This document shows, piece by piece, positions 11,007 to 63,894 of a DNA stretch of 64,000 nt. This DNA comes from Neodothiora populina. Taxonomy: Eukaryota. The position numbers and the translations under genes were made by a program. The DNA lies in contig NW_027191408.1 of the NCBI RefSeq assembly GCF_041146345.1, forward strand, positions 1,302,001-1,366,000, written 5' to 3'. A model generated the notes under the pieces. It did no database searches and had not been told where the DNA came from. It saw nothing but the letters and a program-made list of their open reading frames with translations. Position 1 is the first letter of the stretch, and each line of letters opens with the position of its first letter.

Positions 11007-11725
11007 GAAATCATGGAGAGGCCCGGATGACACGGAATACTTATAGCTACGACGACCTACGGCTAAGATAATAGCATTGACGGGTTTTGTTCTTTCTAGA
11101 AGGCCAGGGCTGGTGCTGACTGTGGCTAACGGGGGTCTTGATCAGATTCGAGGACATGAGGACGACATACGAGGACATTAACGGGCATCATCTCAGGTGT
11201 TCAGGGACTAGTGTCAGGTGCACAACCAATCATTGTCGAGCTGACTGCACTTACATCCCTTTAATTAATACTAATTCTCTGGGGCAGAAGCTAAGACGTC
11301 CACATTAGGAAACTACCATGAGTTTCTCCATCTTGAGGCTCCCTCCCTCACTGCGGGGCCGCCGATGATCTCATCACAGAGTTCAACACATCTTTTCGAT
11401 GTTTTGTGTTTACAGTCCACAGCTGCACGAAGTTGTATGATCTTGGTCATACTCACAATTGCAGAAATAGCGTTTCCCCGATTGCTGATATTCCTCATCC
11501 GTGTTGCCTCCATTCGTCAGCACGGTCTCGTTGACTCGACGTGGTTCTACAAACTAGAGACCCCACCATAGATGACAAGCCACCTTGAATCGTCCAGCAG
11601 ATCCAGCCTTGTCTATACAAGCATTTGTCATCAAAATTCAGACTCGCTGTACCATTGGGAAAATCATCCAGGCTTATCGTCTCTGTAACAGCATCGCTGG
11701 TTGAATTCATTGCCATCTTACCAAT

Positions 11726-39155: not shown

Positions 39156-40945
39156 TCAAAGTGTTGAGGCATCATAATCTCTGCTCATCAGTGTTCGTAG
39201 CGTCTCGCGACTACATCTAGGGCTCAAGTCTGGAACGCTACTATCCGGAGTGATTGCAGTATTCGCAGAGGAACCTGCAAGCGATGGGGTATACACTCTA
39301 TATCCATCAACGATGAAGACATCGTCATCTGGCTGAGATGAATAGTCTGGAAGCTTTTCCGATCCGTAGGAGGGCAGACTGTCCGATCGCGACCGCGAGT
39401 CTTCGTACTTTGCGTGCTGTGATGAGCGGTTGATCTCGGAATTGGAGGATAATCGTCCCTCCGAGATGACCGCCTGCCACGCTTGCTCGATGTCACTTGT
39501 ATCGACGTGATCGCCAGTCGCGAACGACGCAGCTTCAAGGACAAGCGCTTGCTTTTCTCCACAATCGAGTTGACGGCATGGGAGCCGAAACAAAGCCCTA
39601 AAAGCAACCCAGCGTTTGCGAATCGCTTCTTTGCGAGCAAGTCGCCGATACTCGCGAGCGCGCCTTCGTTCCTCGCGGTCTGCCAGTCTTTCCGTTCGTC
39701 GGCGGAAAGATCGACACTTTCGACGAATGCAGGAGAGCAACCCGGTCACGCCGAGTACGCCAGCGAGGACTTCGAGTACTAGTATAATGATACTCTGCTT
39801 GTCCGTATGTTCAGGGCTGGGGCGATGGGAAGTCGGATCGGTTCCGTAATTCAGATTCTTCTCATCGGCCACGATTGCTTGCCATTGACGTTCATCACTG
39901 ACCAATGGAGACTGCTGAAGTGATGATTTGATGGTGGCCATGAGATCCATGACAGCATGACGAATGTGCTGGCAAATGGCTTTGCCCGAACACTTCACGT
40001 CATGATTACACTCCTGAAGGTCGTCACTGAGTCTGGTACGACAGTCCATGGTCAATCTACGAATGAGCTCGCGCTCTTCCTCGAAGCGCTTGCGAAGTTC
40101 TTTAGCGGGTGGGTTCTCGGAGTCAGTGGACTCTTCGGAACTATTAGCTGCTGTCGATGCATGGCCGTCTGAGTCGGGCAGAGGCTCGCTCTCAGAAGGG
40201 AACAGGGCGGAAGCGATCTCGTGTTCGTTGTCCAGAGATAGACATGTAGTATCCGGATGGGGATGAGGGATCACGAGAGTGGCAGCTTGTAGAGTAGCGT
40301 TGAAGACAACAGTGAACGAAGGGAATGTATCGCGAGAAGCCCCGTCCAAAGGGTCTATGTCGAAGAAGAGAACCTGTCGAGGTGAGGGTAGTGATGACAG
40401 TGAGGTTGTGTCGCAAAAGCCTTGCACAGAAAGCGCGACGGTCTCATTAGCGGTCGTGATATTGAAGGATGATGCTTGGTCGACACCGCCTCGTAAATCA
40501 ACGTTGAATGATTGACCGTTCAAAGTCAAAGACACATTGTCGCATTCATGACTTTCTTCAAGATCATGTACAAGTTCAAAAGGCTAGAGTGAGTGAATAA
40601 AGTCAGATATATAGAATAACCGGTATGGAGCAACGCCGTATTCTTGGCTTACCAGGGCCGCGTCAGCTGGGCCATTAAAGCAGCCGGGACATGCGACCGC
40701 AAAGGCTACTGCATGCCGATATGCTGCTACACATCGACCATCAGTTTCATTTGATCCTTATTGCATGACGGAATCGGCCTACCCTGAGCTGGATCATCCT
40801 CTGCGTCGTGGAGAGGAGAGGATGGGACGATAATCGGATGTGGAACGGCGCTTATGAGTGGTGCGAGGATGATCGTGATGTAGAGAACGTTAAAGACACA
40901 AGGAGCACATAATAAGGAGATGATGGTAGTAATGAGAGAAGACAT
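39156..40945 (-). CDS. Hypothetical fungal single-pass membrane protein, 3 exons (introns 40727-40782, 40584-40652)
   Basis: Hydrophobic N-terminus, CPGC motif in exon 2, TM segment IIILVLEVLAGVLGVTGLLSCI followed by an Arg-rich stretch, LPSY/LPDY motifs and a C-terminal TPDSSV..SPR.SRET motif. Confidence 0.8.
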
Positions 40946-41602
40946 GTTGATTCGAACGTATCGCGATAATCTACATTGGCCTTGTGGCCCGTCGAGTATA
41001 ACGTCGGCCCCTCCTCGATAGTTGAAGTATTGTAGATTAATGGCGCAGGTCTCTGAGGATAGAGCAGGTCCTTATGATGGGTTCAGGCAACAGGATGAAT
41101 GACTGATACGCCAAGCGGAGGCTCACGGCGGAGCACCTGAAGGATCAAGTCTTCTTTTGGTATTATTTACGAGAGTTTTGCCGTGTCCAAAAAACCCATG
41201 CCGCGACCATCCCTATTGAGGGACAAGTTGCGTCAAGGGTTTGAGGTCTGTGCTTCACATTTCGACCATGAGATTCCACCCCGTCACGTCGGACATATAA
41301 GGACCCGAGAACGCCGATAATCCGACCGGGCGTTTGTCCAGCATTTAGGGTTTGGCTCGTGCGGCTCTTGCCGCTTTGACGTCGCCGTGTCGCTGCTTCT
41401 CAGTGTCGTCGCCCTACAGAGGCAGGCGCGAAGCAGCGACTAAGCTCGAATGATGACAATGCGACAAAGCTATACCTCAATCTAGAAAGAGCTACCCTAC
41501 CTACCTTATCCAGTACGGCATATTGAATCACCATCGCGTGTATCCAGTCATTATTTATTGAATCTCGTCGTATCCTCTCTTTCTCTGCTTGATCTCCTCG
41601 AC

Positions 41603-42127
41603 ATGGTGGTGAGTTTCCGCGTCTACAACTCCTCAGCGATTATGTGCTCACCTCAGGCATCTAACACTCACATCTTGCATGACAGCTCCCACTTGGACTA
41701 CTCATCGCGGCGCAAGGCCATCCTATGCTGGTTGAACTCAAGAATGGCGAGACCTTGAACGGCCATCTTGTCAATTGTGACACATACATGAATCTCACTC
41801 TCAAGGAAGTCATTCAAACGAGTCCGGATGGCGATAAGTTCTTCCGGTTACCAGAATGCTACATAAGAGGAAACAACGTATGGCTATTTTTGGAATGGGA
41901 GTATACGATTGGGCGCGGGCTGACCTAAAGCGCCACAGATTAAATACCTACGAATGGAAGATGAAATCGTCGATCTGGTGAAGGACCAACAACAAAGTCA
42001 GCAATCATCAAGAGGCGGTAGAGGAGTAGGGGCTCAAGGCAGAGGAGACCACGGTGGAAGGGGAGATAGAGGTTCCGGAAGAGGTAGAGGAGGCAACCGT
42101 GGTAGAGGCAGAGGTCGCGGTCAATGA
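41603..42127 (+). CDS. LSM4: U6 snRNA-associated Sm-like protein LSm4, 3 exons
   Basis: [28 protein letters not shown]...YIRGNNIKYLR with an RG/RGG-rich tail; TGA at 42125-42127. Confidence 0.95.
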
Positions 42128-42601
42128 GAGGCGCTGTGCACGAAGGCGAAAGAAGGAGGATACCCATCACCCGACACTACCTAAACGCGATTGCACAGTT
42201 GGCGGTTATCACTCGAAAATTTTGCGAAGTGGCATGCTAATATGATCATGGTCACACATTATTGCTTTTCAGCGTGAGTTCTGAAAGCCATTGACGATAA
42301 ATTAATACCTGCTTCGCTGTCCTGAACTCGAAGGGATAGAGAATGTCTCAACTTCTCTTCTTCTCGATTGATCAGGTGGGCAAAGGTGGCAGTGAACTCA
42401 AGATACATTATAAACACAAAGGTTGTGGGCACTAAATGCTATTAAGAGTTCTCTAAACCAAAACCAAAACAATCAAAAAGAGCTTATCGACTCAGTATCT
42501 GAACGCCATATCTCGAAAGATTTGCCCCGAGGTATCGTGCAACCAAGAATCGCGAACCCGCACATCCAAAACGCCGCCACAAAACCCACTGATTCTGGTG
42601 A

Positions 42602-43755
42602 CTATGTGACCCTGCTGACTCTGACGTTGTCTACAGTCACTTGCGCTGTTTTCCCCGTCAGGCCGTTGCCGGTGAGGCACTGTAATGTGATGCAAATCAT
42701 GTCGTCCTGTTGTGTGGCTTCGAAGGTCTGACTCATTGTGCCCCATGTCGCTGCCGGAGTACCTGCACCGTCCTTTGCACCCGCACTGGCTGGGCCTGCT
42801 CTCGTTAGGAGCATCTCATCCCAACCGTAGTTATAGAGACTCAGGCTGCCACCAATGGAACCCGAGGACGGAAACTTGTATTTGAAGCTGACTTGGTACG
42901 TTTGGCCGGGGCAGATAGGGAGCCTGGGGCTGCATATAGAGCCATGCGAGTCTGCAGTCGATGCATACTTACACGCCAATATCGCTGCCGAACCTGAGCT
43001 ATCGAAGCTGGCCCCAGTTGCCACACTGGCATATGAGGCAGGATTGGCCGTTTTGGTCCAAGAGGCAAGGCCAGACACGAAATTGCCCGCTGCAGTAGTC
43101 AACGCATTATTTGAGCAAGTCGATGTTTTCGTAGAAGCAATGCTGGTCCGTGATGTCATCGTTGTTGTTCTAGTTACTACTTGGGAGGTTGTGGATGTAC
43201 CAGACAAGCATTTGCAAGCTTTTTTGAGGTCATTCACGCTGATGCCTGGAATAGTAGACCTCGTGCGATCCCTAGCCATTCATTAGCATAACAGCGAAGT
43301 CGTGAATACTGGACGAGATGTTCGAGGACTGACTGATACATATAGAACGAACAGAATGCCGACGGACTCGGATACTCATTGGACAATACTTTGGTGTATA
43401 CACTACAGCTGGATCCTGCTTTCGGCGCGAACATTGTGTTGTATCTGCGTGGTGTTCTTGCAGAAGCGGTGATACATTTGCATGCCGCCCAAGTGTCCGA
43501 TGCTCCTAGCAATTGGAAGGGGGAATTCGTGCGCGGACTGTCAGAACTCGTGTCAGTCGGTGTTTCCAATCTCTCGTATTGATCTTATACATACTATGAG
43601 AGGTAGAAGTCACAGAAGAAGATGGCATGTTTTGAACTGCGATTCACATAGGCCACATTCTTCGAGTTGCATGTAGCAGCTCGCCCCTCAACCACTGCGC
43701 ATATTACACACGACACGAAGGCGAGGAGGTTAAATGTGACAGACAAGAGGCGCAT
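42602..43755 (-). CDS. Secreted Cys-rich protein with two N-terminal repeats, a Thr/Ser linker and a putative carbohydrate-binding (galactose-binding-like) C-terminal domain; 3 exons
   Basis: Signal peptide MRLLSVTFNLLAFVSCVICA; repeats FCxFY...ACKC; C-terminal PGQTYQVSFKYK...WGTMSQTFEAT...VDNVRV. Introns at 43538-43594 and 43272-43333. Confidence 0.75.
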
Positions 43756-44190
43756 GGTGTTACGAACGGTGGAGGTACTGCTGAAGTAAAGAGGTGGCTT
43801 GAGAAGAAACACCTACCTGAGCCCACCCATATATATTCATGGACCCATGGGGTAAGTACTGTTATATGTTCATCGACTTTCCACATATATGTCATGGCCG
43901 ACGACATTTCGACGTTCAGATTCTGCATTCCCAGCCACGAGGACTATGAATTGTATAGAAGAAGTTGTCAACATTAGAACGGTATACGGTTGATATCTAA
44001 CGGCGAATCGTGGTTACCCGCCACAATTGACCGGCAGTGAGGGATGCTTTCGCAAGTATATTGCACTCAACGTGATCGTCCAGAATCATACAGTCGTCTC
44101 TTCAGAAGCATGAATTACAAGTCATATGGATCAGTACAGTGCGTTGCTGGTGTACAGTGAGTTGTCGATACATTGAGAGATCAGAGTAAA

Positions 44191-44232
44191 GTAAGGTAAG
44201 GTGAAGTGAATAGGGCAGGCTAAGGTAAGGTA
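44191..44232. repeat. Imperfect (GTAAG)n low-complexity microsatellite
   Basis: gtaaggtaaggtgaagtgaa...taaggtaaggta. Confidence 0.5.
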
Positions 44233-45226
44233 GACATGCTGTTCAAGCCAAGACCGTTAAAACGCTTTCCTCACGCGTGCCGGCTTTCAGCCACCTAGGT
44301 ACCCAACACATGAGCTCTCGGCATTATTCTACAGTCCCTATCGAACACTTTTCGGGACTTGTAGGGACCATGTCGTCGAGTCGCGGGAGATCAGACAGTT
44401 CGTGTGATGACTTTGCATGTGCCGAGCTCTCACAATGAAACCATCAAACGCTTGACCGAACGTAGCATCAGCATGTAGCCGAAATGCGAAAATATGATTA
44501 ATGACCTGGGCAGACCGCAATGCATGAAGAGTACGGTATATTGATTAATAGGTGCTGCGACCTTGCCTTGAGCACTTCTCTCAAACTGGCCTCGACTTGA
44601 TCGCATCGAGTAGGATGTCATCAACGAAACCAATTTGAGCTTGTGATCATGCAAGAATCTCAGGTCCTAATTTCACAAGCTTAGCAAGATGTACGGTCAA
44701 CGCCATTAGAGACTGCAGCGATGAGCGACAACCATCATATATTAAATACGATTCGAGGCAATGTACAGTCACAGGTCATCCTTAAGTTCAGACTTCCCTC
44801 GGATGTGCTACAATCATACTTCAGGCAAGATCTGCGGAGTGCAGCTCCAAAGCTACTCCACTATTTCACTTTGTTATAGCGATACCCGCTCCGCTGGCCA
44901 GCAGGATTGTTAGCGCGATTCCGCCATCTGGACTCCATTGTCGCCATCTGGTGGTCACTTAGGATTGGACAAATGTTATTGGTCGGAATAGTGTCATGGT
45001 CCACCAAAGGTCTTGCTCAACAAGCATGTTCAATATCTGGTCGCAGGATCGAGGGTACTATGATGAAAGTACTGCATTAATTACGCGATGCAGGGAGGGA
45101 GGTGTGATACTGGCGATGCTCATCATCCCAGGGGGACAGACAACCGTCATGGTCGAAATGGATATTTAAAAAGGCTTAGACCTCAGCCTGGTCTGCCATT
45201 CTCATGTGCTACCTATCTCGAGCACT

Positions 45227-46921
45227 ATGGAGGATATCACCACCAATGCCAATGCGGGCGCCTCTGCTACATCTGACGCAAGTAACAAGAAGGTGCAATC
45301 TGTAGTGTCTGAAAGTCGGACATTCGATACAGGTGGAATAACTACACCAACAAGTGATTCTCTCGCGATATCACATGATACCAATCGAACAAGTCCCACC
45401 CCCGGCAATCTGAAGCACAAGCTACGAACGGTGCAACGCTACATCTGGGATGACCCGGATAAGTCTTCTGAAGAGAAGAAATTCTTACTCAAACTTGACT
45501 TCTTCCTCCTCAGCTACTCTTGTCTCGGCTACTTCTGCAAAAATTTGGATCAACAGAACGTGAGCAATGCATACGTTTCTGGAATGAAGGAGGACCTACA
45601 TATGGGAGGCAATCAACTATCGTACCTAAGCAATGTCTTCACTGCTGGCTACGTCGTGAGCCAGCTTCCAGCGGTCATTCTGGTGACCAGAGTCCGGCCA
45701 TCGTACCTGGTATCAACGTTGGAGGTCCTGTGGTCGATCTTGACCTTCTGCAGCGCTGCTGCGAAGAATGTCTCACATCTATACGCTCTACGATTCCTCA
45801 TTGGAGTCTGTGAAGGCGCGTTCTTCCCTTGCATGGTGAGTTTATATTGAAATTAGTTAGGAGACGGGAGCTGATACAACATTAAGGTATACGTGATCAA
45901 CTCTTGGTATCAGAAAGACGAACGGGCCAAGCGTATGACTCTGTTCTACGCCACGGCAAGTCTGTCACATATGTTCTCAGGCTATCTGCAAGCCGGCGCA
46001 TACAACGGACTGAATGGGGCTCTCGGACACACTGGCTGGCAATGGCTCTTTATCATCTGCGGCGTCATCAGTCTGCCTGTGGGCATCGTAGGGTATTTCT
46101 TCAACCCCGACTTTCCAGATAATACCCGTGCCTTCTACCTTAATAAAGGCGAGATTGAATTTGCGAGACAGCGCCTGAGGAAAAGCGGATACAAAGCATT
46201 GGGCACGTCAGCCTGGGATAAAAAGAAGATCTTCCGCATCGTAGCCTCATGGCAGTTTTGGGTGCTGTCCTTCGGATATTTCTTTGTCCAGTCAAGTTAC
46301 CCATCCCAGCAGCCCTTCTACTCTCTATGGCTCAAGGCGGAGCACCACTCGGTATACCAGATCAACGTATGGCCAACTGGACAGAGTGCGATTGGCGTCG
46401 TCACACAGGTGGTGGCAGGCATGCTGTCAGATTCGCCTTTACTGAATGGTCGACGTTGGCAGGCCATCATTGTGATGCAAGGCGGGACAATCTTCTCGAC
46501 AACTGTGCTAGCCGTCTGGAACGTGCCTATTGGACTGAAGTACGCTGCCTTTTACATATCCTACATGGCTGCGGGAGTTCCAGCCCTGTACTTTTCCTGG
46601 TTTCCTGATCTCATGCCAGACGATCATGAGATGGGAGGATTCATGACTGCTTTCGCGAACATGTTCTCATACATCAATGTTATTTGGTACACAGACGCGG
46701 TGTGGCGAACATCAGAAGCACCCAGGTTCAAGGCTGGATTCATCGCTGCAGCTTGCTTAGGTGTAGCGCTTATTCTGACATCGCTTGGTATGCGCTTCCT
46801 TGAGCTAAGAGACGGGAAGATTCGCGAAAAACATACGAACGGGCTCGGGGATGTGGAAACGCCAGTGATTGTCGGAGAGGAAGAAGAGCCTCGGGAGGAC
46901 TCAAGTCGAAAATCGCATTGA
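45227..46921 (+). CDS. MFS transporter, anion:cation symporter family (Liz1/Fen2 pantothenate-transporter-like), intron 45836-45886
   Basis: YIWDDPDKS.EEK.FLLKLD, KNLDQQNVSNAYVSGMKEDL, LRFLIGVCEG, SWY..DERAKR, GWQWLFIICG. ATG at 45227. Confidence 0.92.
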
Positions 46922-47572
46922 AATAGTTGACTTGGACGCTTTCGGGTAGGATAATGTAGAGGGCTCAGCTCATTCTAGATACTTGGTAACTAAATACCTA
47001 TTCACCACGACACCTAGGTTGATTGCGCTGATATCACCGAGCTTGATAACCGAACCTAGTTTTGCCATTCAAGTCAGTCAAATGTATGTCCGACTGCAAC
47101 AGAAGTTGATCATATACGCACAGTAAGCCTCCGCATATTTGGACACTACAAAGAGAACAAACCTGACCACGAGATACCATTTAGTGGCGGCAACCTCCAC
47201 TGTCAAGGACCTCAGCCATCCACTGTACAGTAGAGTAGTGTCCATTGGCTGTACCTTCCCAATATGGACAGACGAGTTCCTACCGCGTTTCTCAAACACA
47301 AAGCTCGAAGTACTATTGATCCAAGCCTTACATATTATGTACAGTAAGCTACCTTAAGTTCCGGTTCATAGTAGAGATAAGACCGTCCTTTTGCTTGCCG
47401 TCACGTATTTCAAGATAAGCGTTCCTGTGCTCAATTGTCATTTGAGCGTCTAGCAGCTTGCGGCCGCCATTATTGGCCTTGAACCTTCTTCTTCGGCTGG
47501 ACATCCCGAATAGGGTATAGCGTCGCTAGAGGCACATCACCATCGCTCTATTGTAAGACCATCACCTGGTAG

Positions 47573-47580
47573 TATATAAA
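47573..47580 (+). promoter_or_regulatory. TATA box of the copper amine oxidase gene
   Basis: TATATAAA about 110 bp upstream of the ATG at 47691. Confidence 0.55.
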
Positions 47581-47690
47581 CACCGAGATGCACTCCGTGG
47601 TCTCTGTTCACCTTAATTCTCGCATCAGACAAGTCCAACTATTCTCATTACTTCACTAGACGGCTGATTGATAGTTGGTGTGTTAGTAAC

Positions 47691-49757
47691 ATGTCTCCGG
47701 TCCATCCTTTAACGAATCTCTCCATCGAGGAGACCAAGCAAGCTCGAGATATTGTTCTGAGCCATCACCCAGATGAAGTCATTGATTTCAGGGAAATCTT
47801 TCTCAAGGAGCCTGCTAAATCAGAGCTGATCGAGTTTCTCGACCTGGAGCATTCTGGTAGCCTAACAGCATCATCTCCTCGACCTGCTCGCTTGGCTAAA
47901 TGCCAGTACGATGTCATTGGCGCGGACAGAATACCTTATTACCACGAGTCCATCGTAGACGTGGCGAAGGGTGATCGAGTCAAGCATGAAATCATTGGTA
48001 AAGAGCACCAGGCAGCCCTTACGCTTGATGAATTCGACGTCCTAGTGGATGCCTGTAAGCAATCCAAGATGTTCCAAGATGCTCTCTCGGAGTTCGAGCT
48101 CCCACAAGGCTTCGAAGTGGTCATCGAGCCGTGGCCTTATGGAGGTCTTGATACCACCGATGAGCACAGGCGATACTTTCAAGGCCTCATCTTTGCTCAG
48201 GATCTTCGCAATGGAAATCCGGACTCGAATTTCTACGCATTTCCTTTGCCGTTGATCCCAATCATGGACGCCCATAAGCGAGAAATCATCCGAATTGATA
48301 GACTGGCTACAGGAGGTAAAGGAGATAGCCTCGACGGCAAAACGAACTCCAAGAAGATTCTGGAGCACTGCACGAATGCCGAGTACGTCCCTGAGCTTCT
48401 TCCCAACGGGACCAGAAACGATCTAAAGACTCTCAACGTCATCCAACCTGATGGTCCCTCATTCACCGTGTCAGACGATTCTTTGATAGAATGGCAGAGA
48501 TGGCGATTCAGAGTGTCATTCAACCCTCGCGAAGGAGCTGTCCTGCATGACATCCATTACGATGGCCGAAGCATTATGTATCGACTCGCCATTAGTGAAA
48601 TGACCGTCCCATATGCAGATGCTCGTGCTCCCTTCCACAGGAAACAGGCTTTCGACTTTGGTGACGGCGGCGCGGGTAATTGTGCCAACAATCTCTCTCT
48701 CGGATGTGATTGCCTTGGTGTGATCAAGTATTTCGATGCTTGTCTCATCGATGGCAAAGGCGATGTCAAAGAGCACCCCAACGTGATCTGTCTTCACGAG
48801 CAAGACGAAGGTATCTTGTTCAAGCACACCAATTGGAGGACAGGCCGCGCTGTTGTGACGAGAAGCAGGGTACTGGTTGTCCAATTTATCATCACACTGG
48901 CCAACTACGAGTATATTTTCGCCTACAAATTCGATCAAGCTGGCGGCATTGACATCGAGACAAGAGCGACTGGTATCGTCAGCTGCGTGAACATCGATCC
49001 AGGCAAGACGAGTGACTACGGCAACGTGGTCAACCCCGGCGTTCTTGCCCAGAACCATCAGCACATCTTCGCCATCAGACTAGATCCCGCTGTTGATGGC
49101 CACAAAAACACAGTCATGATGGAGGAGTCACATAGAGTCCCCATAAACCCACGAACGAACCCTAAGGGCAACTATTATGAAGTTCACAAGACTCCTATCA
49201 CGCAGTCTTCCTATGCGGATGCTGAACCCATGAACAACCGGGTCTTCAAAATTATCAACTCATCAAAGCAGAACAAGATCAGTGGTAACCCTGTGGGATA
49301 CAAGCTTACGCCTCCCGCCACGCAGTTACTGCTTGCAGATCCCGAGTCAGTACAGTCTAAGCGTGCATCTTTCGCTCAACACCATGTGTGGGTGACGAAA
49401 TACAAAGACGATGAGCTGTACGCAGGCGGCCGATTCACTCTGCAATCAACAGAAGAGATCGACGGTGTAGCCGACGCCGTGGCCCGCGGAGACAACGTCG
49501 AGAACGAGGATGTCGTGGTCTGGTCCGTCTTTGGACTTACACATAACCCTCGAGTCGAGGTACGTATCAATGTTGTGAATGAACGCTGAACACTGGACTG
49601 ACCATGCGAATTATAGGACTGGCCAGTCATGCCAGTCGAGATCCACCAGATTCACCTTAGACCTGCAGACTTCTTCGAGGCGAATCCATCCTTAGATGTT
49701 CCGAGCAATAAGAATCTCGCGAGCCAGGAGGTTTACAAAGATTCGTGCTGTGAGTAG
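47691..49757 (+). CDS. Copper/TPQ amine oxidase, intron 49560-49616
   Basis: TPQ consensus ANYEY, Cu ligands NHQH and LTH, KQAFDFGD (catalytic Asp), LGCDCLG. Exon 2 reads DWPVMP...PADFF..NP.LDVP. Confidence 0.96.
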
Positions 49758-50015
49758 AGTATGCGTAAGACTAGACTCCGGGTCGAGGAATGAGATTGCG
49801 CGAGGGGACTTCATGATACAAGATACGACAATGAATCTAAATTTAACGTCATGTGTTGAGAAAATCGTCTGCAATGATTTACCACAGCAAGTCCAAGAAC
49901 GACAACTCGCATAGTGCAATGATACTTCGATGTATATTTTAACGATTTGACCAAGTGAAACATAACGACAGCAACATAAAACATAAAAGTCATACATGGC
50001 ACAAAGATGACAACA

Positions 50016-51756
50016 TCAGGCCTTGGTCTCGACATCTTCCTTCGTCAGATCCTTCTCGAAGTCCTCTGAGACACCGACATCCTGTCCTTCGAAGACGACA
50101 TTATCAACTTCGCCAGCCTGATACTCAAACGGCAGCGCCCTGGCCTCCGCGACATTTGGTGGAGGGCTGATCTTACAGATGGTCGTATAAACAGTCATTG
50201 CCACAACAAAAGCAGTGAGATAACCAATATCGTAGATATGATACGCCGGGCCCGTGACGTCTTTCACACCTTTGACACCGAGACTGCCTAAGAATCCGGG
50301 AAAGGGCAGCGCAATACCACAGACGTATGCGGCGTATGCTCGCCAATGGAAACCTCCGGTGTACCAGTAACGGCCATTTGGATTGGTCGTGTACATATCG
50401 CTGACCCAGTAGTTGCCCTTACGCACGAAGAAGTAGTCGCTGAGCATGATACCAACCAAGGTAGACATAAAGATGCCGATGCCCGTAATGGCGGTGAGGA
50501 AGCTGGAGCCCGAGGTCATGATCTCCCAGGGCACCAAAGCCCAGCCGCCCACGAAGGCGCATAGCACAGCGGCACGGATGAAGTTCAGATGGCGCGGAGC
50601 CATAATGGTTGCATCCACTCCGAAGGGAAGAATGTTTGAGACATAATTTGTTCCCATGAGACCGATGACGAAGGTACATGAGCACAGAAAGACTGCGAAT
50701 TTGGTCTTGGGGGAGTTGTCCTCGACTAGGATCTGGTCGAGGATGAGGGCAGGCTCCCAGTATGCCTCACCGTATATCCTTTGAGTACAAGCAGCGGCAA
50801 CAATGCCGAGGAGCGCGACTACAGTGGCGGACCACGGCGCTACGAGGAGCTGTCCGATGACCTGGTCACGGTTGCGACGCGCGTAACGAGTGATGTCGGG
50901 TTCGGAAGCAATCAAAGGTCCAAACTAGAAGGGTAAAGTCAGCGAAACATCGTGTTGGACTGGGCAATCATCGACATACCTCGCCGTTGATGGCGGAGTT
51001 CATAGCAGCCATGAAGGTCCAGCCAAGGACACTGCTAGAGCTTGCAGATTCACTGAGAGCAATTGTGCCTGGGCCTCCTGAGCGGACAAGACACCATATG
51101 AACAAGCCGAACATTGCAATGGGCATCGTTATGGCCTTGAAGTAGAACAGCGGCTTCATCTCATGCGGCCGGAAAAAAGTGACAATCAGTTGAAAGGTCC
51201 AGAATAGAGCATAAGCAGCCATTTCCCTGGTTGTGGTTCCCGACGACTTGGGTAAGCTGTTGTGGATATTCCTCCATGAGTGGCCGAAGATGCACTGGAA
51301 CATGATGTCTAAGAATTGGCCTCCGAAGTACGACTGCACAGCAAACCACACGAGATCAAGTACCACACGGACAAAAACCGGGAAGTAAGCTCCTCGGATG
51401 CCGAACGTGGCACGAATCATCGTGGGAAAGTTGATGTGATACGTCGCGCCGGAACGACCATTCCATACAGTGATTCCAGAAGCGATGCCATGCCCAACGA
51501 GAACGGCCAGGAATGCCTGCCACCAGAGGAGCCCCCCTGCGACAAGAGAAGATCCGACAGCCCACGTGGATGCACCCCAGGACTCGCTGATCCACCAAGA
51601 TGCAAACGTCTGCCATTTCCATACCCTCTCCTCGAGAGGTACAGGCCGCAGGTCCTCGTTGATCAGTGAAGTTTTGTCGTAATCACCGATGTCCTTCATG
51701 CGAAGGCCATCAATGAAGCGGCTACGCAGCCTGTGCTTGATATTGAGTTGTACCAT
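50016..51756 (-). CDS. NCS1 nucleobase:cation symporter (Fur4/Dal4-like), intron 50925-50979
   Basis: NEDLRPVP..ERVWKW, WISES, YHINFP..RATFG..G, WFAVQ, DITRYAR, VPW, DYFFVRKG, YWYTGGFHWRA. Confidence 0.93.
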
Positions 51757-51906
51757 ATCGACTACCTAAACCTAGAGAAGTAGAGGAATCACAGAGTAGC
51801 CGTAGGACGGACGACAGCTGTTAAAAATATCAACGACCCGATGCCATCCCCATGATACTGGGGATCTTGTGCATATGTATGCACAAAGAACCAGCCTAGA
51901 ACATCA

Positions 51907-52117
51907 TGATAGGATAATGTTATCTTCAAGAGCAATGCAGAGCCTGTCTGCTCTGGGACTGATCCGATCCTGGCGAGATGATTGTGGATGCCCGCGTGGC
52001 GTCGGTGCAAAGATAGGAGCTCCGAAGGTGTGAGATAAGGTCTGCGGGACCCTGGAAATACGCCACTTGTAGTACACGTCCGTAAGCTTGGGTCGTAAAA
52101 CCCGTCCCAGCTTATCG
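51907..52117. promoter_or_regulatory. Cluster of HGATAR (AreA/Nit2-type) sites upstream of the NCS1 permease
   Basis: TGATAG 51907, TTATCT 51920, AGATAG 52011, AGATAA 52033, TTATCG 52112: five sites in about 210 bp. Confidence 0.6.
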
Positions 52118-52274
52118 GTTCGCACGTGGGAAAACGTGGGACATCCCACTAATGCGATGCTGGGACCTAGCAGGGTTCGTACAATGGTCGGTCTGCATAG
52201 AGGATGCGACTAAGCGCGCATGAGGAAGCGTACAGCGATTACTTCGATTTCATACAAAAGCTGAGCTGGTAATT

Positions 52275-53685
52275 CTAGATCTCGACTCTCTGACTAGCCG
52301 CTTCCGCGCAGCTCTCCATATCCGAAGAGTAAGGATAGTCTGTATATCCAACTTCCCGATCATCTGGAAATGGACCATAGAAGCGACTCCTGTCATACTT
52401 GTTCATAGGCTTTCCATCTTTCAACCTGAGACACAGTCAGTCGTAATATTCTCATAACAGACCTTGGATGGGACGGAATCGCACTCACCTCTCGACAAAA
52501 TCGGGATTCGCTAAGAAATGCCTTCCATAAGCAATCGCATCGTACTTGCCGGACTCGATGACACCCCAGCTGTTATCTTGATTCCAGCCGCCTGCGGTGA
52601 AGAAGGGTGTATCTCCCATGATCTCCCGGAACAAGTCCAAACTGATGCTATCAGGCGCCAACCCCCACGACTTGATGAATTCGTCTTTCTCCGCGTAGCT
52701 GTGGAATTGCTCGAAGCGAGGCTCAATGAAGTGGATATAACTCAGGTTGGGGATAGTCCTCTTCAGTTCCCTGCAGAGATATGACCACGTTTCAATCCTT
52801 TGCGTGCCTCTGGTCTGGTTGAACAACCCGAAAGGCGAAAGACGAATAGCACACTTTTCGGGTCCAATTGCTTCGGCAAGAGCAGTCATCAATTCCAGAG
52901 GAAATCTGCAGCGCTTCTCTGGAGTACCTCCATAAGCATCCGTTCTTTTGTTGATATTGTCATTGAGAAATTGTTCCGGGAGGTAGCCATTCCCTCCATG
53001 AACCTCAATACCGTCGAAACCAGCGTCAAGAGCCATCTTTGCAGCAGCAACGAATTCGCCTATAGTATCCTTGATACCCTGCTCGCTGAGCTCTTCCGGT
53101 GGGAAGTCTCTGTATAGAACTGGCGTTGACGAGAAAGGCGGCGGATGATGACTATACACATCACCCTCGATTGGCGAGACGCTCGCTGATACAGTGGGAG
53201 ATCCAGTGAGTTGCTGCACAGTCGTCCGTCCAGCGTGCCAAAGTTGTGCGTAGAAGATACCTCCTTTATCGTGGACCGCTTTTACCACTTTTTCCCAACC
53301 TTTCAAGTGCTCGGGAGCGAAAAGACCTGGTACGCCAGGCATTCCATTGGACTGAGACTGTTGTTTAGCTATACACTTTATATTCGCCAGTCGTAGAAAC
53401 ACGGACTTTTAGACTTGGAGGTATCCCCTCGGAGATCAGAAGCCCACCATCTGTTGTCCTCTGACTGTAATATTCAGTAACCAGCTCATCAGGCACCCAT
53501 ATGCGATTTGGATCCTCTGGCGTACTCTCTTTCAAGGGCACGCCTCGGTTCCGGGTCAGAGGCGCGTGGACCACCCGATGCTTCAAAGTCATCTTCCCAT
53601 TTGCAATACTCAATGGTTCAAAAAGCTTAGACTGCGCTCCCTTAGGTGCTTCAGAAGGCTTCAGGGTGAGGTTGGGTGCATCCAT
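52275..53685 (-). CDS. Old yellow enzyme / NADH:flavin oxidoreductase, 3 exons
   Basis: HRVVHAPLTRNRG, EYYSQR..GGLLISEG, QLWHAGR, GFDGIEVHGGNGYL (His/Asn/Tyr active site), NKRTDAYGG, YGRHFLANPD, GYTDYP. Introns about 53352/53358-53406 and 52426-52488. Confidence 0.94.
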
Positions 53686-54394
53686 AGTCTCAGCGTGTGA
53701 GTGAAAACGGTGATGCTAGGTGAAGTTGAGACAGAAAGAGTGCATACAGATGACCTACCGCATTTACTCGTCGACGTCGCGCGCATATTAATACAACCTT
53801 TGCCATAGTCAGCCGATTAAGCTGGTGGGATCTTCTTCTGCCCGCTCTTTCGCCGAGAACATTTTGTGGTATCGGTGCGGGCACGAATGATCTGCCATGA
53901 TCTACATTTCAATCGCTTTGCGCCGTCGGCCAAGCAAATATCAAGCTGATGCGGATCGGGCGTCATAACTGCCCCTCCTCCTTCACGGCAGCAGTGGCTC
54001 ATTCAGCGTCGCTTATCGCTGCCTGCAGCATAAGATTCCAGATAAGAGCTGAACTCTGGCGCCGATATTTATACATCAAGGTGTTCTTGCCATGCGATAG
54101 GCGTATGTACAGTACCTTAGGTAAGCGGCTCACATCGCAGATGCCGTCTAGCGTAAGGGAGCTGTGTCGCGTGAGATACTGTCGAACGAGTCAGATTGAG
54201 GTTATACCCCGCAGTCGGAAGCACGAACAGCGTCCTGCCTGTTTCTGGTCATTATTGATCATTTCTTGGTGAATCCTTTTACAATTTATCAGGTACCTAC
54301 CTAGTCATTAACCATTTCATCGGGGCGCCACGAATCCTCTGTGAATTACCATATTTATTGTCCAATGCATTTACTTTGTATGAACGTCCAAGGC

Positions 54395-56087
54395 CTATGC
54401 TTTCCAATCAAAATGCTCCTGCCATGCATGTCCAGCTCGCAAAACTTTCTCGTCCTGCCACATACCACTGATGATCTGCATACCGACCGGTAACATCACG
54501 CCAGCGTCGTCCGCTGCGGGTAAGAATCCTATAGGTATCGACATTGCGGGCTGGCCTGTCGCATCGAATTGAACAGTATTGGCTGTCAGACCCACGGTCG
54601 GAGCAATTGTTGCCAGAGGTGTAGTCTTGCTTCCATGTTTCGGTGCCACAAACGGGGTGGTTGGCGTGATCAGCACGTCGTAAGTCTCGAGTGCTTTTTC
54701 ATACTCGTGACGCAATTTGAGGCACAGATTCGTGCCTTTTGCGTATAGCGTCGGGAACTTGTCGACAAGATACTTGCCGTTCAGAAAGATGTTCTGAGTA
54801 GTCGGAAAGCCTGAAATCAATGATGAGCGTAAATCATGCTTAGGGATCAGTAACACCTACACTTCTCAAACTTGTCTTGGGTCCAAGGCAATTTCGCGTC
54901 CTCGAGACCAGTAAGGTGATATTGTCTTCTGCCATGCTGCAGTCCCATCAATGCAAGGTAACATGAAACTCGCTGTTGAATCGTCCAAAAAGCGTTCCCA
55001 GTAGGATGGAGAGGGATGGAGACCTCTTCTACAATGGCGCCAATGTCTCTGAACTTCTCCGCAGCTTGGAGGACCATTTTCTTGTAGCCAGCATCGAGTA
55101 AGCTCAACTCGAACGCCTCTTTAAGGATGCCCACTCTCAAGCCGCTGGCGCCGTTTTTGCCCTGTTTCTTAAGGTCTAAGGCAAATGTAGTACTGCCGTG
55201 CTTGGGCGCTCCAAGACTACGATCGTCGATTCCATCGTATCCAGATACAGCATCCAGGCACTGAGCGACTTCGAAGACTGTTCGTGCTAACGGTCCAGCA
55301 TGATCATCGATTGTATCATTACTTGCAATGCCAGTGTACGGGATGAGTCCATGCGAAGGCTTCAGTCCAACGCACCCACAAAGTGAAGCCGGTACTCGAA
55401 TACTGCCTCCTTGATCTGCGCCAATGCCGATATCCACAAGTCCAGCACCCACGAGGGCTGCTGCACCAGATGTACTTCCTCCAGCAGAGTAACCTTTTCC
55501 AAATGGATTGTCGACGATGCCCTGTGCACTGGAGAAGGAACTAGTGGATTGACACCAATTCTCACAGTGCGCGGTTCCAACAATCTCAGCACCGCTTTCC
55601 AATACCCATCGAACGACGGTCGCATCCGCTTCAGGAATCCAAGGATCGATGATGCTTGTACCGAGTAACTGCGGCACACCCTTCACGCAGATGCAGTCTT
55701 TGAGACATGCGGTTTTACCTGACAGTAGGCCATTGTTCTCCATACTGTCCTTTATCGTGAATGTATGCGCCCATGCATGTCCAAGTACGTTTTCGTCGGC
55801 TGTAGGGCGATGGACCTTGACACGAGGGAATCTCTCAATATCAGTAGGCGGGTGGAAGTCATCAAGAGCGGCCACACTTTCAGCGCAATCGTGTAGGGCT
55901 GCGAGCAGAGTGGTGTAGTCCTGTTCATGTTCCTTTGGTACACTGAAACCCAACTCCCCAAATGTATTGGTTACATCATTCGTGGATACGGTGTTAGTGC
56001 TGACAAGTTGATATCAGCTACCTGTGTTATTGTTCCACAAATGTATGCGGACACTTACTCGGAAATAGAAGTAAAAAGAACGGACAT
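54395..56087 (-). CDS. Amidase-signature family enzyme, 3 exons (introns 56000-56058, 54811-54860)
   Basis: Catalytic Lys in LKD, GGSTSG, GADQGGSIRVPA, GLKPSHGL, DHAGPLAR, TGQPAMSIP, LPVGMQI. Confidence 0.94.
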
Positions 56088-56818
56088 GATTAATGGGCTT
56101 TGATGTGTATGGAAGAACAACGCCTACCTGGAGATGCAGCTTTCTTTGAATAATTCTTTCTCATAGTCACAATACATGAGCCGCATTGAGATGGCCTACC
56201 CTGAACGGCGCCGACGATCGGCGCCGACAACTTGCTTTGAGATTACATACTTGATAAAGTATGGGAAGGATACCTTATGATATCTGGTGGGGGTGGTATC
56301 AGTGATCCCCGCCGTGGATGCTTCAACGAGGCGTGGGCCGGCTATAAGTTGGCCGTAGCCGGCCATACATCGGGTGCTCGACACGGGCTTATCAGTTGCT
56401 CTTCCTCGGACATCCGACAAGAGCTCAACGACTCGTCGGGCTCTCCAGTCATATCGTATGCATAATTAAGCAACCGATACAGATTTGATGTCCCTTGTAC
56501 AAATCACCCTCTATCTAATCGGATTCTAGGTCCATGAACAACATCTTGCCATGTGAGACGACTATGTACCTTCTTCATTCGGTCGAGTATCGGGTCACTT
56601 CGCCGCAGCTAGGCCACCATCCCATGGTTCATGGGAGGAGAGGAGCTGGCCATCATGGTCAGATCGCTGCCGAAAGCGGCGTGTTTGTCTGGTGTCCCGG
56701 TGAATCTCGAGGTAGTAACCATACTTGTATATAGTGTTCAGCTGCGGTGCACAGGTCGGTGGTCTGTCTCATTCTGTCTCCTAATATCTCTTCATATAAC
56801 GCTATTTGATCTCAAACC

Positions 56819-57929
56819 ATGTCTACTCCCGCACAACTTTCCGTAGACCCCAATACAGTCGCTGATTGGGAATGGAACGACAAATACGATTTCCCTAGAG
56901 ATCTCGTTGGCTATGGAGAGCAGTCGCATAACCCCCAGTGGCCAGGAAATGCTAAGATTGCTGTGTCGTTTGTCATCAATTATGAAGAGGTAAGAGCAGC
57001 TCCATTCCTTACAGGGTGGCCGTGATATGTTCTCATTGTGAATGCTTCTCTTATACTAACTTTGCTGGCAACCTTAGGGTGCGGAGAATACCGTCTTGAA
57101 CGGCGATATCCATAGCGAGAACCACCTGTGGGAAGCCCCTGGTGGACCCCCACATGTCAAGGAGCGCGCTGTGAACATTGAGTCCGAGTATGACTACGGC
57201 GCTAGAGCAGGAGTCTGGCGGCTCTTTCGTCTTTTCAACAAGCACAACATGAAGTTCACATTGTATGGAGTCGGTAAAGCCCTCGAGGGCAACCCTGCAG
57301 TGGCGAAATCATGTGTCGATAATGGGCACGACGTGGCTTCTCATGCTTATCGATGGATTGACTACCACAATTTCCCGCCTGAGAAGGAGAAGGAATACAT
57401 TCGCAAGGGCATCGAAAGTATCCAGAAGCTGACTGGAGAAGCACCAAAAGGATGGTATTACGGACGTCTGTCGCCACGATCACACGCCTTGGTCTGGGAG
57501 GTCTACAAGGAAATGAACCTGCCTCTGTTGTGGATGTCAGACTCATACGCCGACGATGTCCCTTACTGGAAAGACGTCCCTGCCGAGAAGGACGATCCTA
57601 ACCCAGAAGGCATGCTCATGGTACCATACTCATATGACTGCAATGACTACAAGTTCAACGTGCCGACTGGTTTCGGTGCGCCCATGGACTTCTACGACCA
57701 TGTCAAGGGCGCTTTCGACGTACTGTACGAAGAGGGCCAGGAAGGCAGCCCCAAGATGATGACCATCGGATTGCACTGCAGGTGCATTGGCAAACCTGCA
57801 AGGTTCGCAGCGCTGAAGAACTTCGTCGAGTATATTGAAAAGAAAGATGGTGTGTGGGTCACTACAAGAACAGCTATTGCCGGGCACTTCAGGAAAGAGT
57901 TCCCGTACAAGAAGGGCCAGCTCGCGTAA
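56819..57929 (+). CDS. PuuE-type (polysaccharide deacetylase fold) allantoinase/cyclic-amide-hydrolase-like protein, intron 56990-57077
   Basis: PRDLVGYG, WPGNAKIAVSFVINYEEG, ESEYDYGARAGVWR, SHAYRW (Glu/His/Trp in place of the Asp/His/His metal site), DSYADDVPYW, FDVLYEEG..PKMMTIGLH. No signal peptide. Confidence 0.9.
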
Positions 57930-62093: not shown

Positions 62094-63894
62094 TCAGACC
62101 AGCGACTGCATCTTCAGCGGGCTGTATTTCCACCGAGGCGTGCCCAAACTCGGCCAGCCCCTCGAGCGCACGTATCGCATGCAAAGGAAATGCGCGCCTC
62201 CCAGAACGAGCACCAGAGGTATCAGCCATAGAATGATCTCCAGCATTCTGTGTTCGGTTACCTTCTCGAACTCCGCCGTGTAGCCAAGGACATTGCCAGC
62301 TTGATCGCGCCCTGCTACACGATAGCGCGTGTATTTCCAACTGTCATCGAGCGCGAAAACACTTTCAAAGTTCCTCTCCTTCTTCACCACATCCAGAGAC
62401 TCGAACTTGTCGCCGTCGGTGGCACCCTGCAGCTCCCATGATTGAATCTCAGTCGCGCCGTTCCAGCTGGCATATACGCTGGAGTGCTTCATCTGTGCCT
62501 GAGGAGGATAGTCTGGCTTGCCGACCCAGCTTTGCACTTTTTGCGTTCGGTAGGAGACGATACGGCCCCAGAAGTCCAGCCACGAAGCGCCAAAGTGAGT
62601 CTCACATACAAGCGACCCGTCGACCTCGAACTCGCTGTACGCGGGAGAGTGGCCCCAGCCGATCACGACAAGTCCACCGTCCGGTCCGACCTGTAACGAA
62701 CCTTGAGATGGGGCACGCGTCCCTTGCATCGACACGTATGAGTGGAGAAGTTTGACGGTGCGATTGGCAACATCAAGTTGCAGCATCATACCCTTGCTAT
62801 GGGATGCTTCGATATGCAGGATTCCGGCTTCCTCGTTGTCGAAGAGAGTCAAGATACCCTCGGCCTCGGACACCCATCGCGCATCATGTTGCCATTTGAA
62901 GTCGGTCGCCGCACCGTCTGAAAGGTCCTTGAATTGGTTGCGTTCTCCGCCCAGAGCCCAGAGTATTTCACCAGTCTCGTGACTGACGGTAGCGATCAAA
63001 TGCAAGTGCCGCGAGGAGATGAGGTAGTCGCCTGCAGCGTCCTTGTCGATGCTGTTGATATGGAAAAAGTCGAAAGGACTGGCTTCCTTGTAGCCAGCAA
63101 AGGGGTTGGTCATATGCGATTCACCTGCGTCGAAATGATCGGAGGCCCTCCATTCGAACAATAAGTCGCCGGTCGCAATGTCAATTTCCTGGAAGATGCT
63201 GTCGGTGATCCATCCGTCGACGGGCCTGCCCATCCCAGAGAGATCGGCGACAGTCTTCTTGTAACTGGTCACGAGCGCCGTGTTGTTTTCTGTTATCTTG
63301 AACTCGTGCAAGTCGCCATGCATGTTGTCGCCTACGACGTGGACCTGATGACTAATTTGGTACGTTTCGTCCAACTTTGAACAAAAATCAACATTAAGCG
63401 CTTAGCCGGTCGCAGATAAATCATCGACATACCATGTAATAAGCACCTTGCCCGGAGCTTGCATCACGATGTCCACCCCAGAAAGTCAGGTAATTCTTGC
63501 CTTGGTATTGTTGACTCTTTAGGTTCATGACGGCACCAAACTGATCCGACATCCAGACGAGATTGCCTTCGCCATCGAGTATCATTGGTCCGGGGTTGGC
63601 GACAGAGTCGCCGGATGGAGTAAGGAGAACAAATCCATCACCACACCTCGCAGAGTCCCATTTCACGTGGGACGTAAGGGGCGAAGACAGGTTGAAAGAA
63701 ACATAACTTTGGGCGCGATATGGACCGTAAACCCCGAGATCATAAAAGGGTGTTTGCAGTGCAGGGAATAACCATCCCACGACCGGAAGAAACAACTGAT
63801 GAAACCCCAGAAGCACAAGCCCGGTGCCTGCAAGCGCCAGCAAAGAGAGAGCGACAACACGCAACCTGCTACACCAATTCATGAGTAAGTACAT
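62094..63894 (-). CDS. Arylsulfotransferase (ASST)-like membrane-anchored protein, intron 63375-63432
   Basis: GPMILDGEGNLVW, YLTFWGG, DLHEF, FQEIDIATG..LFEW, DFFHINS, YLISSRH, WQHDAR, SQGS, SWNGATE; hydrophobic segments at both ends. Start codon uncertain. Confidence 0.88.

Follow-up and report, generated by a model that had tools for sequence, protein, structure and literature searches.

A six-gene island of Neodothiora populina holds a candidate fungal ring-opening module of a PuuE-type hydrolase and an amidase

Six adjacent genes occupy positions 45227-57929 of a 64,000-nucleotide stretch of the Neodothiora populina genome (contig NW_027191408.1; hereafter the window). They encode a major facilitator superfamily (MFS) transporter, a copper amine oxidase (CuAO), an NCS1 permease, an old yellow enzyme (OYE), an amidase and a PuuE-type hydrolase. 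We favour, with modest confidence, the reading that this locus is a lineage-specific nitrogen-scavenging island of N. populina, the core of which would be a conserved fungal ring-opening module of PuuE-type hydrolase and amidase, joined by the OYE in several lineages. The linkage of amidase with PuuE-type gene, and of OYE with PuuE-type gene, recurs in other fungi; we infer an order of steps, a class of substrate and a purpose in nitrogen salvage.

In the proposed route, the OYE, an ene-reductase, would first saturate an activated ring C=C bond (in several lineages, N. populina included). The clade-specific PuuE-type hydrolase would then open a small cyclic amide, imide or ureide ring by hydrolysis, and the amidase, of the short-chain/nitrile-pathway type and expressed from a shared divergent promoter, would free ammonia from the resulting open-chain amide. 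The NCS1 permease is a plausible importer for such a route. The amine oxidase and MFS transporter genes, for which no connection with this route is shown, most likely represent nitrogen-source genes that share its location. By analogy, a route that reduces, opens and deamidates a ring does exist in fungi, as the cited part of one paper on nicotinate breakdown describes for HxnT, HxnM and HxnN (PMC9304392).

Amidase, PuuE-type and OYE genes are repeatedly linked in fungi

Linkage was read mostly from consecutive locus tags or accession numbers; DNA itself was used for the window and for two metagenome contigs (L001 and L002). On both contigs the amidase and PuuE-type genes are adjacent and divergent. 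Compared in pieces of exon size, the contigs are 98-100% matches to Aureobasidium pullulans proteins. The two genes are adjacent in nine named species of four orders, N. populina included. By numbering, they are neighbours in A. pullulans (four assemblies), Helicocarpus griseus (Onygenales), Fonsecaea erecta (Chaetothyriales), Rhinocladiella similis, Cladophialophora carrionii, Diplodia seriata (Botryosphaeriales), Neofusicoccum parvum and N. ribis. We take R. similis and C. carrionii to be Chaetothyriales, and Neofusicoccum to belong to Botryosphaeriales.

The OYE gene adjoins, or lies within three genes of, a PuuE-type gene of the same clade in eight species of three classes. The two are adjacent in Hymenoscyphus fraxineus and Thermoascus crustaceus, separated by one gene in Glarea lozoyensis, Diplocarpon coronariae, Leptodophora sp., Cadophora sp. 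MPI-SDFR-AT-0126 and N. populina, and three accession numbers apart in Lachnellula subtilissima. The intervening gene falls between EPE29737 and EPE29739 in Glarea and is PZA11_002705 in Diplocarpon. OYE and amidase also occur on contigs of equal size in two close relatives of N. populina (27451 bases, P0122/P0242; 10231 bases, P0129/P0243; 83-87% identity), which suggests that the trio of OYE, PuuE-type and amidase genes is common to the Neodothiora lineage. Since linkage recurs in other lineages, the arrangement of both the amidase/PuuE pair and the OYE trio is non-random.

Trees were built as quick IQ-TREE runs, with SH-like approximate likelihood-ratio test (SH-aLRT) values as the only support. 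The fungal PuuE-like tree resolves at least three clades among 52 fungal entries, and all 14 linked entries, the window hydrolase among them, fall into a single one (clade A; 20 of the 52 entries, SH-aLRT 98). Outside Neodothiora, Delphinella strobiligena has a PuuE that is 91% identical. All 10 linked amidases likewise group in one clade, which comprises 15 of 44 fungal entries and has a support of 100 and a stem length of 0.47. The window OYE stands beside a Helotiales group and not with Pleosporales, at a support of 91 that is not decisive, and no Aureobasidium protein is found among the 120 best OYE matches.

The branching within the linked clades departs from the species tree, Helicocarpus and Thermoascus being placed among Dothideomycetes with moderate supports. 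Such branching would fit a module that was lost patchily or transferred horizontally.

The hydrolase carries the metal-independent PuuE signature

The window hydrolase matches the Pfam family Polysacc_deac_1. Its structural matches in the PDB are 3s6o (E 5.7e-80), 1z7a (in the range of E 6e-80 to 3e-70) and PuuE itself, 3cl6 (E 2.6e-70 over 278 residues), while 3qbu, of the HpPgdA/cyclic-imidase type, is matched at E 2.9e-13 only, over 86 residues. Metal-independent PuuE proteins are marked by loss of the Asp-Asp of NodB motif 1, replacement of the second His of motif 2 by Trp and retention of the motif 5 His, as set out in the legend to Fig. 9 of PMC10967932. The window hydrolase bears these marks as E56/E57 (NYEEG), H146...W150 (SHAYRW) and H290 (LHCR), all of which align to fully (100%) conserved columns in a set of 80 bacterial PuuE-like proteins. 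Of the 100 columns with a conservation of 95% or more in this set, it retains 86, E56/E57, H146, W150 and H290 included, from which we predict that it keeps catalytic capacity. The remaining 14 near-invariant columns are altered (e.g., T242S, L243Y, M248Y, Y209W, F207L, S286T and D268G), most of them by changes that are fixed across the fungal clades.

The bacterial relatives come from 80 loci and are 44-50% identical to the window hydrolase. Within 8 kb on each side, these loci contain no OYE, CuAO or MFS relative, one distant NCS1 protein (21.5% identity) and two weak amidases (26-28%). An initial bacterial scan that used one single protein gave no match. Compared with the bacterial PuuE allantoinases (TIGR03212; 3cl6, 1z7a and 3s6o), the window protein has the same fold and the same metal-independent signature (E-E, H...W and the motif 5 H), but it is without purine-catabolism neighbours, has an amidase and an OYE as conserved partners, and differs at the 14 near-invariant positions.

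Fungal PuuE-like proteins are often annotated as ‘chitin deacetylase 1’, and at least two copies are present in Mytilinidion resinicola, Thozetella, Aspergillus karnatakaensis and Zasmidium cellare. In the part of PMC8092297 that concerns it, the Ustilago protein PuuE1 is given as ‘not analyzed’.

A purine-related role is one alternative. The locus would then be an allantoin island akin to the DAL cluster of yeast, with the PuuE-type protein as a true allantoinase, the NCS1 protein as allantoin permease, the Dal5-family MFS protein as an allantoate-type permease and the other genes as bystanders. Besides the 86 retained columns, this reading can draw on the four annotated bacterial loci, where the relatives lie beside purine or ureide genes: OHCU decarboxylase and allantoicase (L018), xanthine dehydrogenase and a bicupin (L020), and M20 amidohydrolases (L003 and L011). 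The two halves of the NCS1 protein, moreover, match NCBIfam allantoin-permease models (E 2e-25 and 3e-22). We nevertheless regard it as unlikely. The PuuE allantoinase equivalog model TIGR03212 gives 298.9 bits against a cut-off of 424.6, a score obtained on exon 2 only (283 of 340 residues, model positions 34-297 of 297). Only the patchy clade A, out of at least three fungal PuuE-like clades, is linked to amidase and OYE, which play no role in allantoin breakdown, and T242S, L243Y, M248Y, Y209W and D268G are among the 14 altered positions. Uricase, OHCU decarboxylase, allantoicase and M20 amidohydrolase, which bacterial relatives do have as neighbours, are all absent from the 64 kb.

Fungi normally use a DAL1-type allantoinase, a member of the amidohydrolase superfamily and not of the NodB fold; DAL4 is an NCS1 protein and DAL5 an MFS protein of the anion:cation symporter (ACS) family. 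The island would resemble the Saccharomyces DAL cluster in being a fungal nitrogen-catabolic cluster with an NCS1 permease, a putative Dal5-family MFS transporter and a predicted ureide ring opener, but it lacks allantoicase, ureidoglycolate lyase and malate synthase and has OYE, amidase and amine oxidase instead. The Saccharomyces cluster receives mention in the cited part of PMC13751858.

The nearest bacterial relatives of the amidase are probable terminal amidases of open-chain amides

The Pfam family Amidase (PF01425) matches the amidase on two exons with 211 and 59 bits, and the translation contains GGSTSG and GGSIRVPA, presumably parts of the catalytic Ser-cisSer-Lys triad signature. Its best match among solved structures is the Rhodococcus amidase 3a1k (E 1.8e-76), against E 3e-24 for FAAH. 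The NCBIfam model PRK07235 scores 416 bits (cut-off 545). Bacterial members of that family, which was found in 17 of 401 sampled bacterial genomes, are 33-39% identical to the window amidase over the full length.

We examined the context of 18 such bacterial loci, 12 of them annotated. Aldoxime dehydratase and nitrile hydratase lie alongside in 3 of the 12, and Liv-type amide/amino-acid ABC systems in 6, one of which also has AmiR. Because of these neighbours, the bacterial PRK07235-type relatives are read as terminal amidases for open-chain amides. Relatives of the PuuE-like protein, OYE, NCS1, CuAO and Dal5-type MFS occur in none of the 18 loci within 7 kb. The aldoxime-nitrile and short-chain amide operons of bacteria hold the nearest bacterial family of the window amidase, there in the terminal step from amide to acid and ammonia, whereas the window itself has neither nitrile hydratase nor aldoxime dehydratase.

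Three of the bacterial loci (L090, L091 and L096) place the PRK07235-type amidase between an aldoxime dehydratase with a MetA-like outer-membrane channel on one side and the alpha and beta subunits of nitrile hydratase on the other. The nitrile hydratase is accompanied by a CobW-like or CbiM-like accessory gene, making a complete aldoxime-nitrile-amide operon.

The ene-reductase, amine oxidase and transporters

The OYE matches Pfam Oxidored_FMN (PF00724) with 194 bits, and its nearest solved structures are OPR1, OPR3 and OYE (E 1e-72 to 1e-57), so that it classifies by sequence as a classical OPR/OYE1-like ene-reductase. It contains HGGNGY, which we take to hold the His/Asn pair of OYEs and the Tyr proton donor. 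In OYE1 the ligand-binding pair is His191/Asn194, according to the cited part of PMC9304392. The Aspergillus nidulans member of the OYE cluster is AN2682 (P0255), which is 65% identical to the window protein.

The amine oxidase matches Pfam Cu_amine_oxid (PF01179; 506 bits) and the NCBIfam primary-amine oxidase model (510 bits, cut-off 651). Its translation contains NYEY (within ANYEY), which we take to be the N-Y-D/E-Y precursor motif of topaquinone (TPQ).

Both exons of the NCS1 gene match Transp_cyt_pur, at profile positions 1-211 and 216-437 of 440. The ncs1 and allantoin-permease models of NCBIfam score under their cut-offs, and the protein can be classed as Fur/allantoin-permease-like at the level of the family. 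MFS_1 is matched by both exons of the transporter gene. The best NCBIfam match of this transporter, TIGR00893 (ACS family), is weak (73 and 55 bits against a cut-off of 395) and would place it closest to the ACS (Dal5/Liz1/Tna1-type) group, a resolution that extends to the family only. Atlas look-ups of the NCS1 and MFS proteins returned generic names only.

The island comprises six intact genes, five of them with transcript contigs

Scans of open reading frames (ORFs) and Pfam families in the window find six intact adjacent genes with nothing in between (Table 1). Gene models are stop-to-stop ORFs joined over GT..AG introns that keep the frame open. For the Pfam scan, 16 stop-to-stop ORF translations from the interval 42.6-61.3 kb were used. 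Each of the 10 pieces that make up the six genes matches a named family (MFS_1 twice, Cu_amine_oxid, Transp_cyt_pur twice, Oxidored_FMN twice, Amidase twice and Polysacc_deac_1), and four small ORFs in this interval have no Pfam match. The gaps between the genes measure 258-769 bp, and two intergenic ORFs that were scanned (119 and 123 aa) gave no Pfam match either. The amidase and OYE models agree letter for letter with the deposited N. populina proteins AAFC00_002369 (P0121) and AAFC00_002368 (P0241). This species, an aspen-canker fungus, belongs to the Dothioraceae of the order Dothideales.

Table 1 Features of the N. populina island (positions in the window)
Feature	Position	Strand	Details
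MFS transporter	45227..46921	+	547 aa, 1 intron; exons 45227-45835, 45887-46921
Copper (TPQ) primary-amine oxidase (CuAO)	47691..49757	+	669 aa, 1 intron; exons 47691-49559, 49617-49757
NCS1 (Fur/Dal4-type) permease	50016..51699	-	542 aa, 1 intron; exons 51699-50980, 50924-50016; start codon provisional
Old yellow enzyme (OYE; OPR/NemA-like ene-reductase)	52275..53685	-	430 aa, 2 introns; exons 53685-53407, 53351-52489, 52425-52275
Amidase-signature amidase	54395..56087	-	527 aa, 2 introns; exons 56087-56059, 55999-54861, 54810-54395
Divergent amidase/PuuE-type promoter	56088..56818	.	731 bp
PuuE-type metal-independent NodB-fold hydrolase (predicted cyclic amide/ureide)	56819..57929	+	340 aa, 1 intron; exons 56819-56989, 57078-57929

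The MFS start codon and the PuuE-type stop codon coincide exactly with the ends given in a preliminary description of this DNA. That description had reported six adjacent genes without a housekeeping gene between them, and the Pfam matches and spliced models bear this out, with all six intact. Its divergent promoter is confirmed as well, the ATGs of the amidase (56087, minus strand) and the PuuE-type gene (56819, plus strand) pointing apart over 731 bp. The six family assignments made there prove right at family level by Pfam, and that of the PuuE-type protein also by its match to 3cl6 and its hallmark residues.

Transcript evidence comes from run X2, which shares its sample with the genome run, X1. 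Run X2 is labelled ‘DNA?’, and we took it as cDNA only since three introns are missing from its contigs. Its contigs omit three modelled introns at their exact positions, those of CuAO (49560-49616; a jump of 57 bases at 49557/49615, cut +2), amidase intron 1 (a jump of 59 bases at 55999/56059) and the PuuE-type gene (56990-57077; a jump of 88 bases). Five of the six genes are covered and are transcribed: MFS (at 45448-45654 and 45886-46891), CuAO, the 3' part of NCS1 (50016-50716), amidase and the PuuE-type gene, the contig of which begins at 56543. No X2 contig falls in 51505-54306, which holds the OYE and the 5' part of NCS1, and this gap is uninformative on expression. A further run, X3, gave short scattered contigs only. 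Gene integrity, the splicing of three genes and the family assignments are thus matters of observation.

A single X2 contig (47643-50716) extends from the 5' end of CuAO, with the intron of this gene spliced out, and reaches into the 3' part of NCS1, which is convergent with CuAO, the gap between the two stop codons being 258 bp. Because one contig spans both genes, the 3' ends of the two transcripts probably overlap.

On its right the island is flanked by a MutL-type mismatch-repair gene, identified by Pfam. On its left (39156-45226) lie ORFs without a Pfam match (475 aa at 39156-40583 and 113 aa at 43636-43977) and a weak CBM_4_9 match, under the cut-off, at 42602-43279, so that the left border is less well defined than the right. 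Across the rest of the window, 10 of 29 ORFs of at least 150 aa have Pfam matches: P5A-ATPase, Glu/Gln-tRNA synthetase, pirin, rabenosyn, sirohaem synthase, RNA methyltransferase, signal peptidase, isocitrate/isopropylmalate dehydrogenase, the weak CBM and arylsulfotransferase. Among these mostly housekeeping genes stand an arylsulfotransferase (ASST)-like ORF (62094-63401, minus strand; PF14269, 192 bits) and a pirin/quercetinase-like ORF (9969-11141, minus strand). The base composition of the island is unremarkable, and no peroxisomal targeting signal of type 1 (PTS1) is apparent by eye at any of the six C-termini.

The divergent promoter contains a tandem palindrome

The promoter between amidase and PuuE-type gene contains the palindrome CGGCGCCG twice, at 56206-56213 and 56219-56226. 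The copies lie 13 bp from each other, some 120-130 bp upstream of the amidase start codon, and the 64 kb has no others. The pair resembles the site of a zinc-cluster factor and may be considered a candidate for one; CGGCGCCG occurs neither in the other island promoters nor in the amidase/PuuE promoter of Aureobasidium. No UaY-type site (TCGG-N6-CCGA) is present in the cluster.

The Aureobasidium divergent promoter (L002, 9810-9890) is dense in GATA/TATC words (GCTTATCC, GATAAGCGATAAGAGCTGATAAGATAG and CTATCT), and for this reason hints at control of the pair by nitrogen state, of the AreA type, in that genus.

Discussion

Several observations weigh against a conserved ring-opening module at the core of a nitrogen-scavenging island. 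Most of the amidase/PuuE and OYE/PuuE adjacencies rest on accession numbering and not on DNA. The amidase and PuuE-type genes are 3-9 numbers apart in four other A. pullulans assemblies, and in A. subglaciale they share a contig at a distance of 12 numbers. Helicocarpus (AJ79_05297 against 02016) and Emmonsiellopsis sp. PD_5 have the OYE orthologue without the linkage, and the OYE orthogroup as a whole is widespread, with a tree that mostly tracks taxonomy. In Aureobasidium, of the same order and the nearest named genus, only the pair is present: relatives of OYE, NCS1, CuAO and MFS are absent within 10 kb of it in L002 and within about 5-10 kb in L001. An OYE of the AN2682 group could also be a generic detoxification enzyme, because AN2682 appears among the NapA-dependent genes in the cited part of PMC5371717.

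The regulatory evidence is no stronger. The excess of HGATAR sites in five island promoters is not significant (18, against 13.9 in dinucleotide shuffles; P 0.14), the 7-9-mers that island promoters share stay within the shuffle range, and no common motif emerges. As the preliminary description had said, no pathway-specific transcription factor is visible: the window contains no Zn2Cys6 or C2H2 motif in six frames, and the 29 ORFs of 150 aa or more that lie outside the cluster match no transcription-factor family of Pfam. Its caution that the substrate cannot be read from sequence also holds, since the sequences reveal none.

These points lend some weight to a chance neighbourhood, in which only the promoter-sharing amidase/PuuE pair would form a unit, and OYE, NCS1, CuAO and MFS would be unrelated to it. 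The different gene context in Aureobasidium, where the pair has an amino-acid permease, a GNAT protein, a BCS1-like AAA protein and a PDR-type ABC protein as neighbours, agrees with it, as do the broad and mostly vertical inheritance of the OYE orthogroup and the lack of a cis-regulatory link. What speaks against it is the recurrence of OYE/PuuE linkage in Helotiales, Thermoascus and Neodothiora, which is hard to obtain by chance for two specific genes, and we consider this explanation improbable.

At the other extreme, all six genes might serve one dedicated pathway, which would start with import by NCS1 and/or MFS, proceed by reduction (OYE), ring opening (PuuE-type protein) and deamidation, and end with CuAO oxidizing a released amine. 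Six compatible functions do lie within 12.7 kb with no other gene between them and a MutL housekeeping gene on the right, X2 contigs are found on five of the six genes, and OYE and amidase share equal-sized contigs in the two close relatives. Against this stand the Aureobasidium DNA, with none of the other four genes within 10 kb of the pair, the lack of a common promoter motif and of a transcription factor, and the chemistry itself, as the amidase products, acid and ammonia, give CuAO no chemical link. A single six-gene pathway is thus quite doubtful in our judgement.

The preliminary description had proposed one dedicated six-gene unit and a full route from import to amine oxidation, and had looked to synteny across fungi for its support. 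Part of this endures: the pair (nine species) and OYE/PuuE (eight species) recur and are clustered in distant taxa, and the steps of ring reduction, ring opening and deamidation gain comparative support from that recurrent linkage. The six genes as a unit do not fare as well, since they are not together in Aureobasidium, whose DNA has the pair alone. The six-gene pathway is, in short, partly supported, and the set that recurs is one of three genes, OYE, PuuE-type and amidase.

The closest parallel in logic is nicotinate breakdown by the hxn regulon of Aspergillus nidulans. HxnT (AN9177, an OYE; PMC8478523), HxnM (a cyclic imide hydrolase) and HxnN (an amidase) act there in this order, according to the cited parts of PMC8478523 and PMC9304392, and the former also describes a divergent hxnN-hxnM minicluster in Aspergillus and Lipomyces. 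In the literature searched, no paper other than those on hxn describes such a fungal module. The statement in the preliminary description that no fungal cluster of this composition had been described therefore stands for the composition as such, but it overlooked the analogous hxnT/hxnM/hxnN part (PMC8478523, PMC9304392). In enzyme logic, both systems combine an OYE reductase, a NodB-fold ring opener and ammonia release by an amidase-signature enzyme, with hydrolase and amidase genes divergent, in a fungal nitrogen-source setting.

The subfamilies differ at each step, in a comparison made through nearest structures and A. nidulans cluster members and not by direct alignment with Hxn sequences. 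HxnM (AN6518) is of the CE4_HpPgdA-like kind, its nearest structure being 3qbu (PMC8478523, Table 1, and the cited part of PMC9304392) and is more than 60% identical to the Pseudomonas putida cyclic imide hydrolase (PMC9304392, same part). The window hydrolase is PuuE-type and not HpPgdA-type, with E 2.9e-13 for 3qbu against 2.6e-70 for 3cl6, and its A. nidulans relative is AN9327; we rejected orthology with hxnM. HxnN has FAAH1 as its closest solved relative (PMC9304392, as cited), whereas the window amidase is of the Rhodococcus/PRK07235 type, nearest to 3a1k and far less close to FAAH, and orthology with hxnN was rejected as well. The window OYE falls in the AN2682 group and not in that of AN9177 (AN9177 itself is not in the tree), and was likewise set aside as an hxnT orthologue. 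A Pfam scan of the window found none of the HxnR, HxnS, HxnV, HxnW, HxnX and HxnY families. Despite the matching enzyme classes, the known hxnN-hxnM minicluster and two Penicillium proteins labelled ‘hxnT’ that are 61% identical to the window OYE, it is thus very improbable that the three genes are the lower nicotinate pathway. Because hydrolase, amidase and OYE all belong to other subfamilies, the island appears to resemble hxn in logic and not in membership.

We therefore retain the reading of a nitrogen-scavenging island built on the PuuE-type/amidase module, with the OYE in several lineages. A bolder version, which we put forward only tentatively, is that clade-A PuuE-type hydrolase, amidase and OYE constitute an undescribed, patchy and possibly horizontally mobile salvage route for an unsaturated five- or six-membered cyclic imide, hydantoin or pyrimidine-like compound. 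It would be a second, independently recruited reduce-open-deamidate route beside that for nicotinate, and in Neodothiora would have expanded to an island of six genes, an NCS1 importer of its own among them.

Through the amidase pairing and the recurrent ene-reductase link, the PuuE-like proteins of fungi gain a catabolic role that can be tested. The arrangement suggests that fungi have a second route by which nitrogen heterocycles are opened, and bears on which nitrogen sources, of plant or microbial origin, are open to Dothideomycetes, Chaetothyriales and Helotiales. In addition, the metal-independent ring-opening hydrolase could be combined with the amidase and the ene-reductase into a biocatalytic set.

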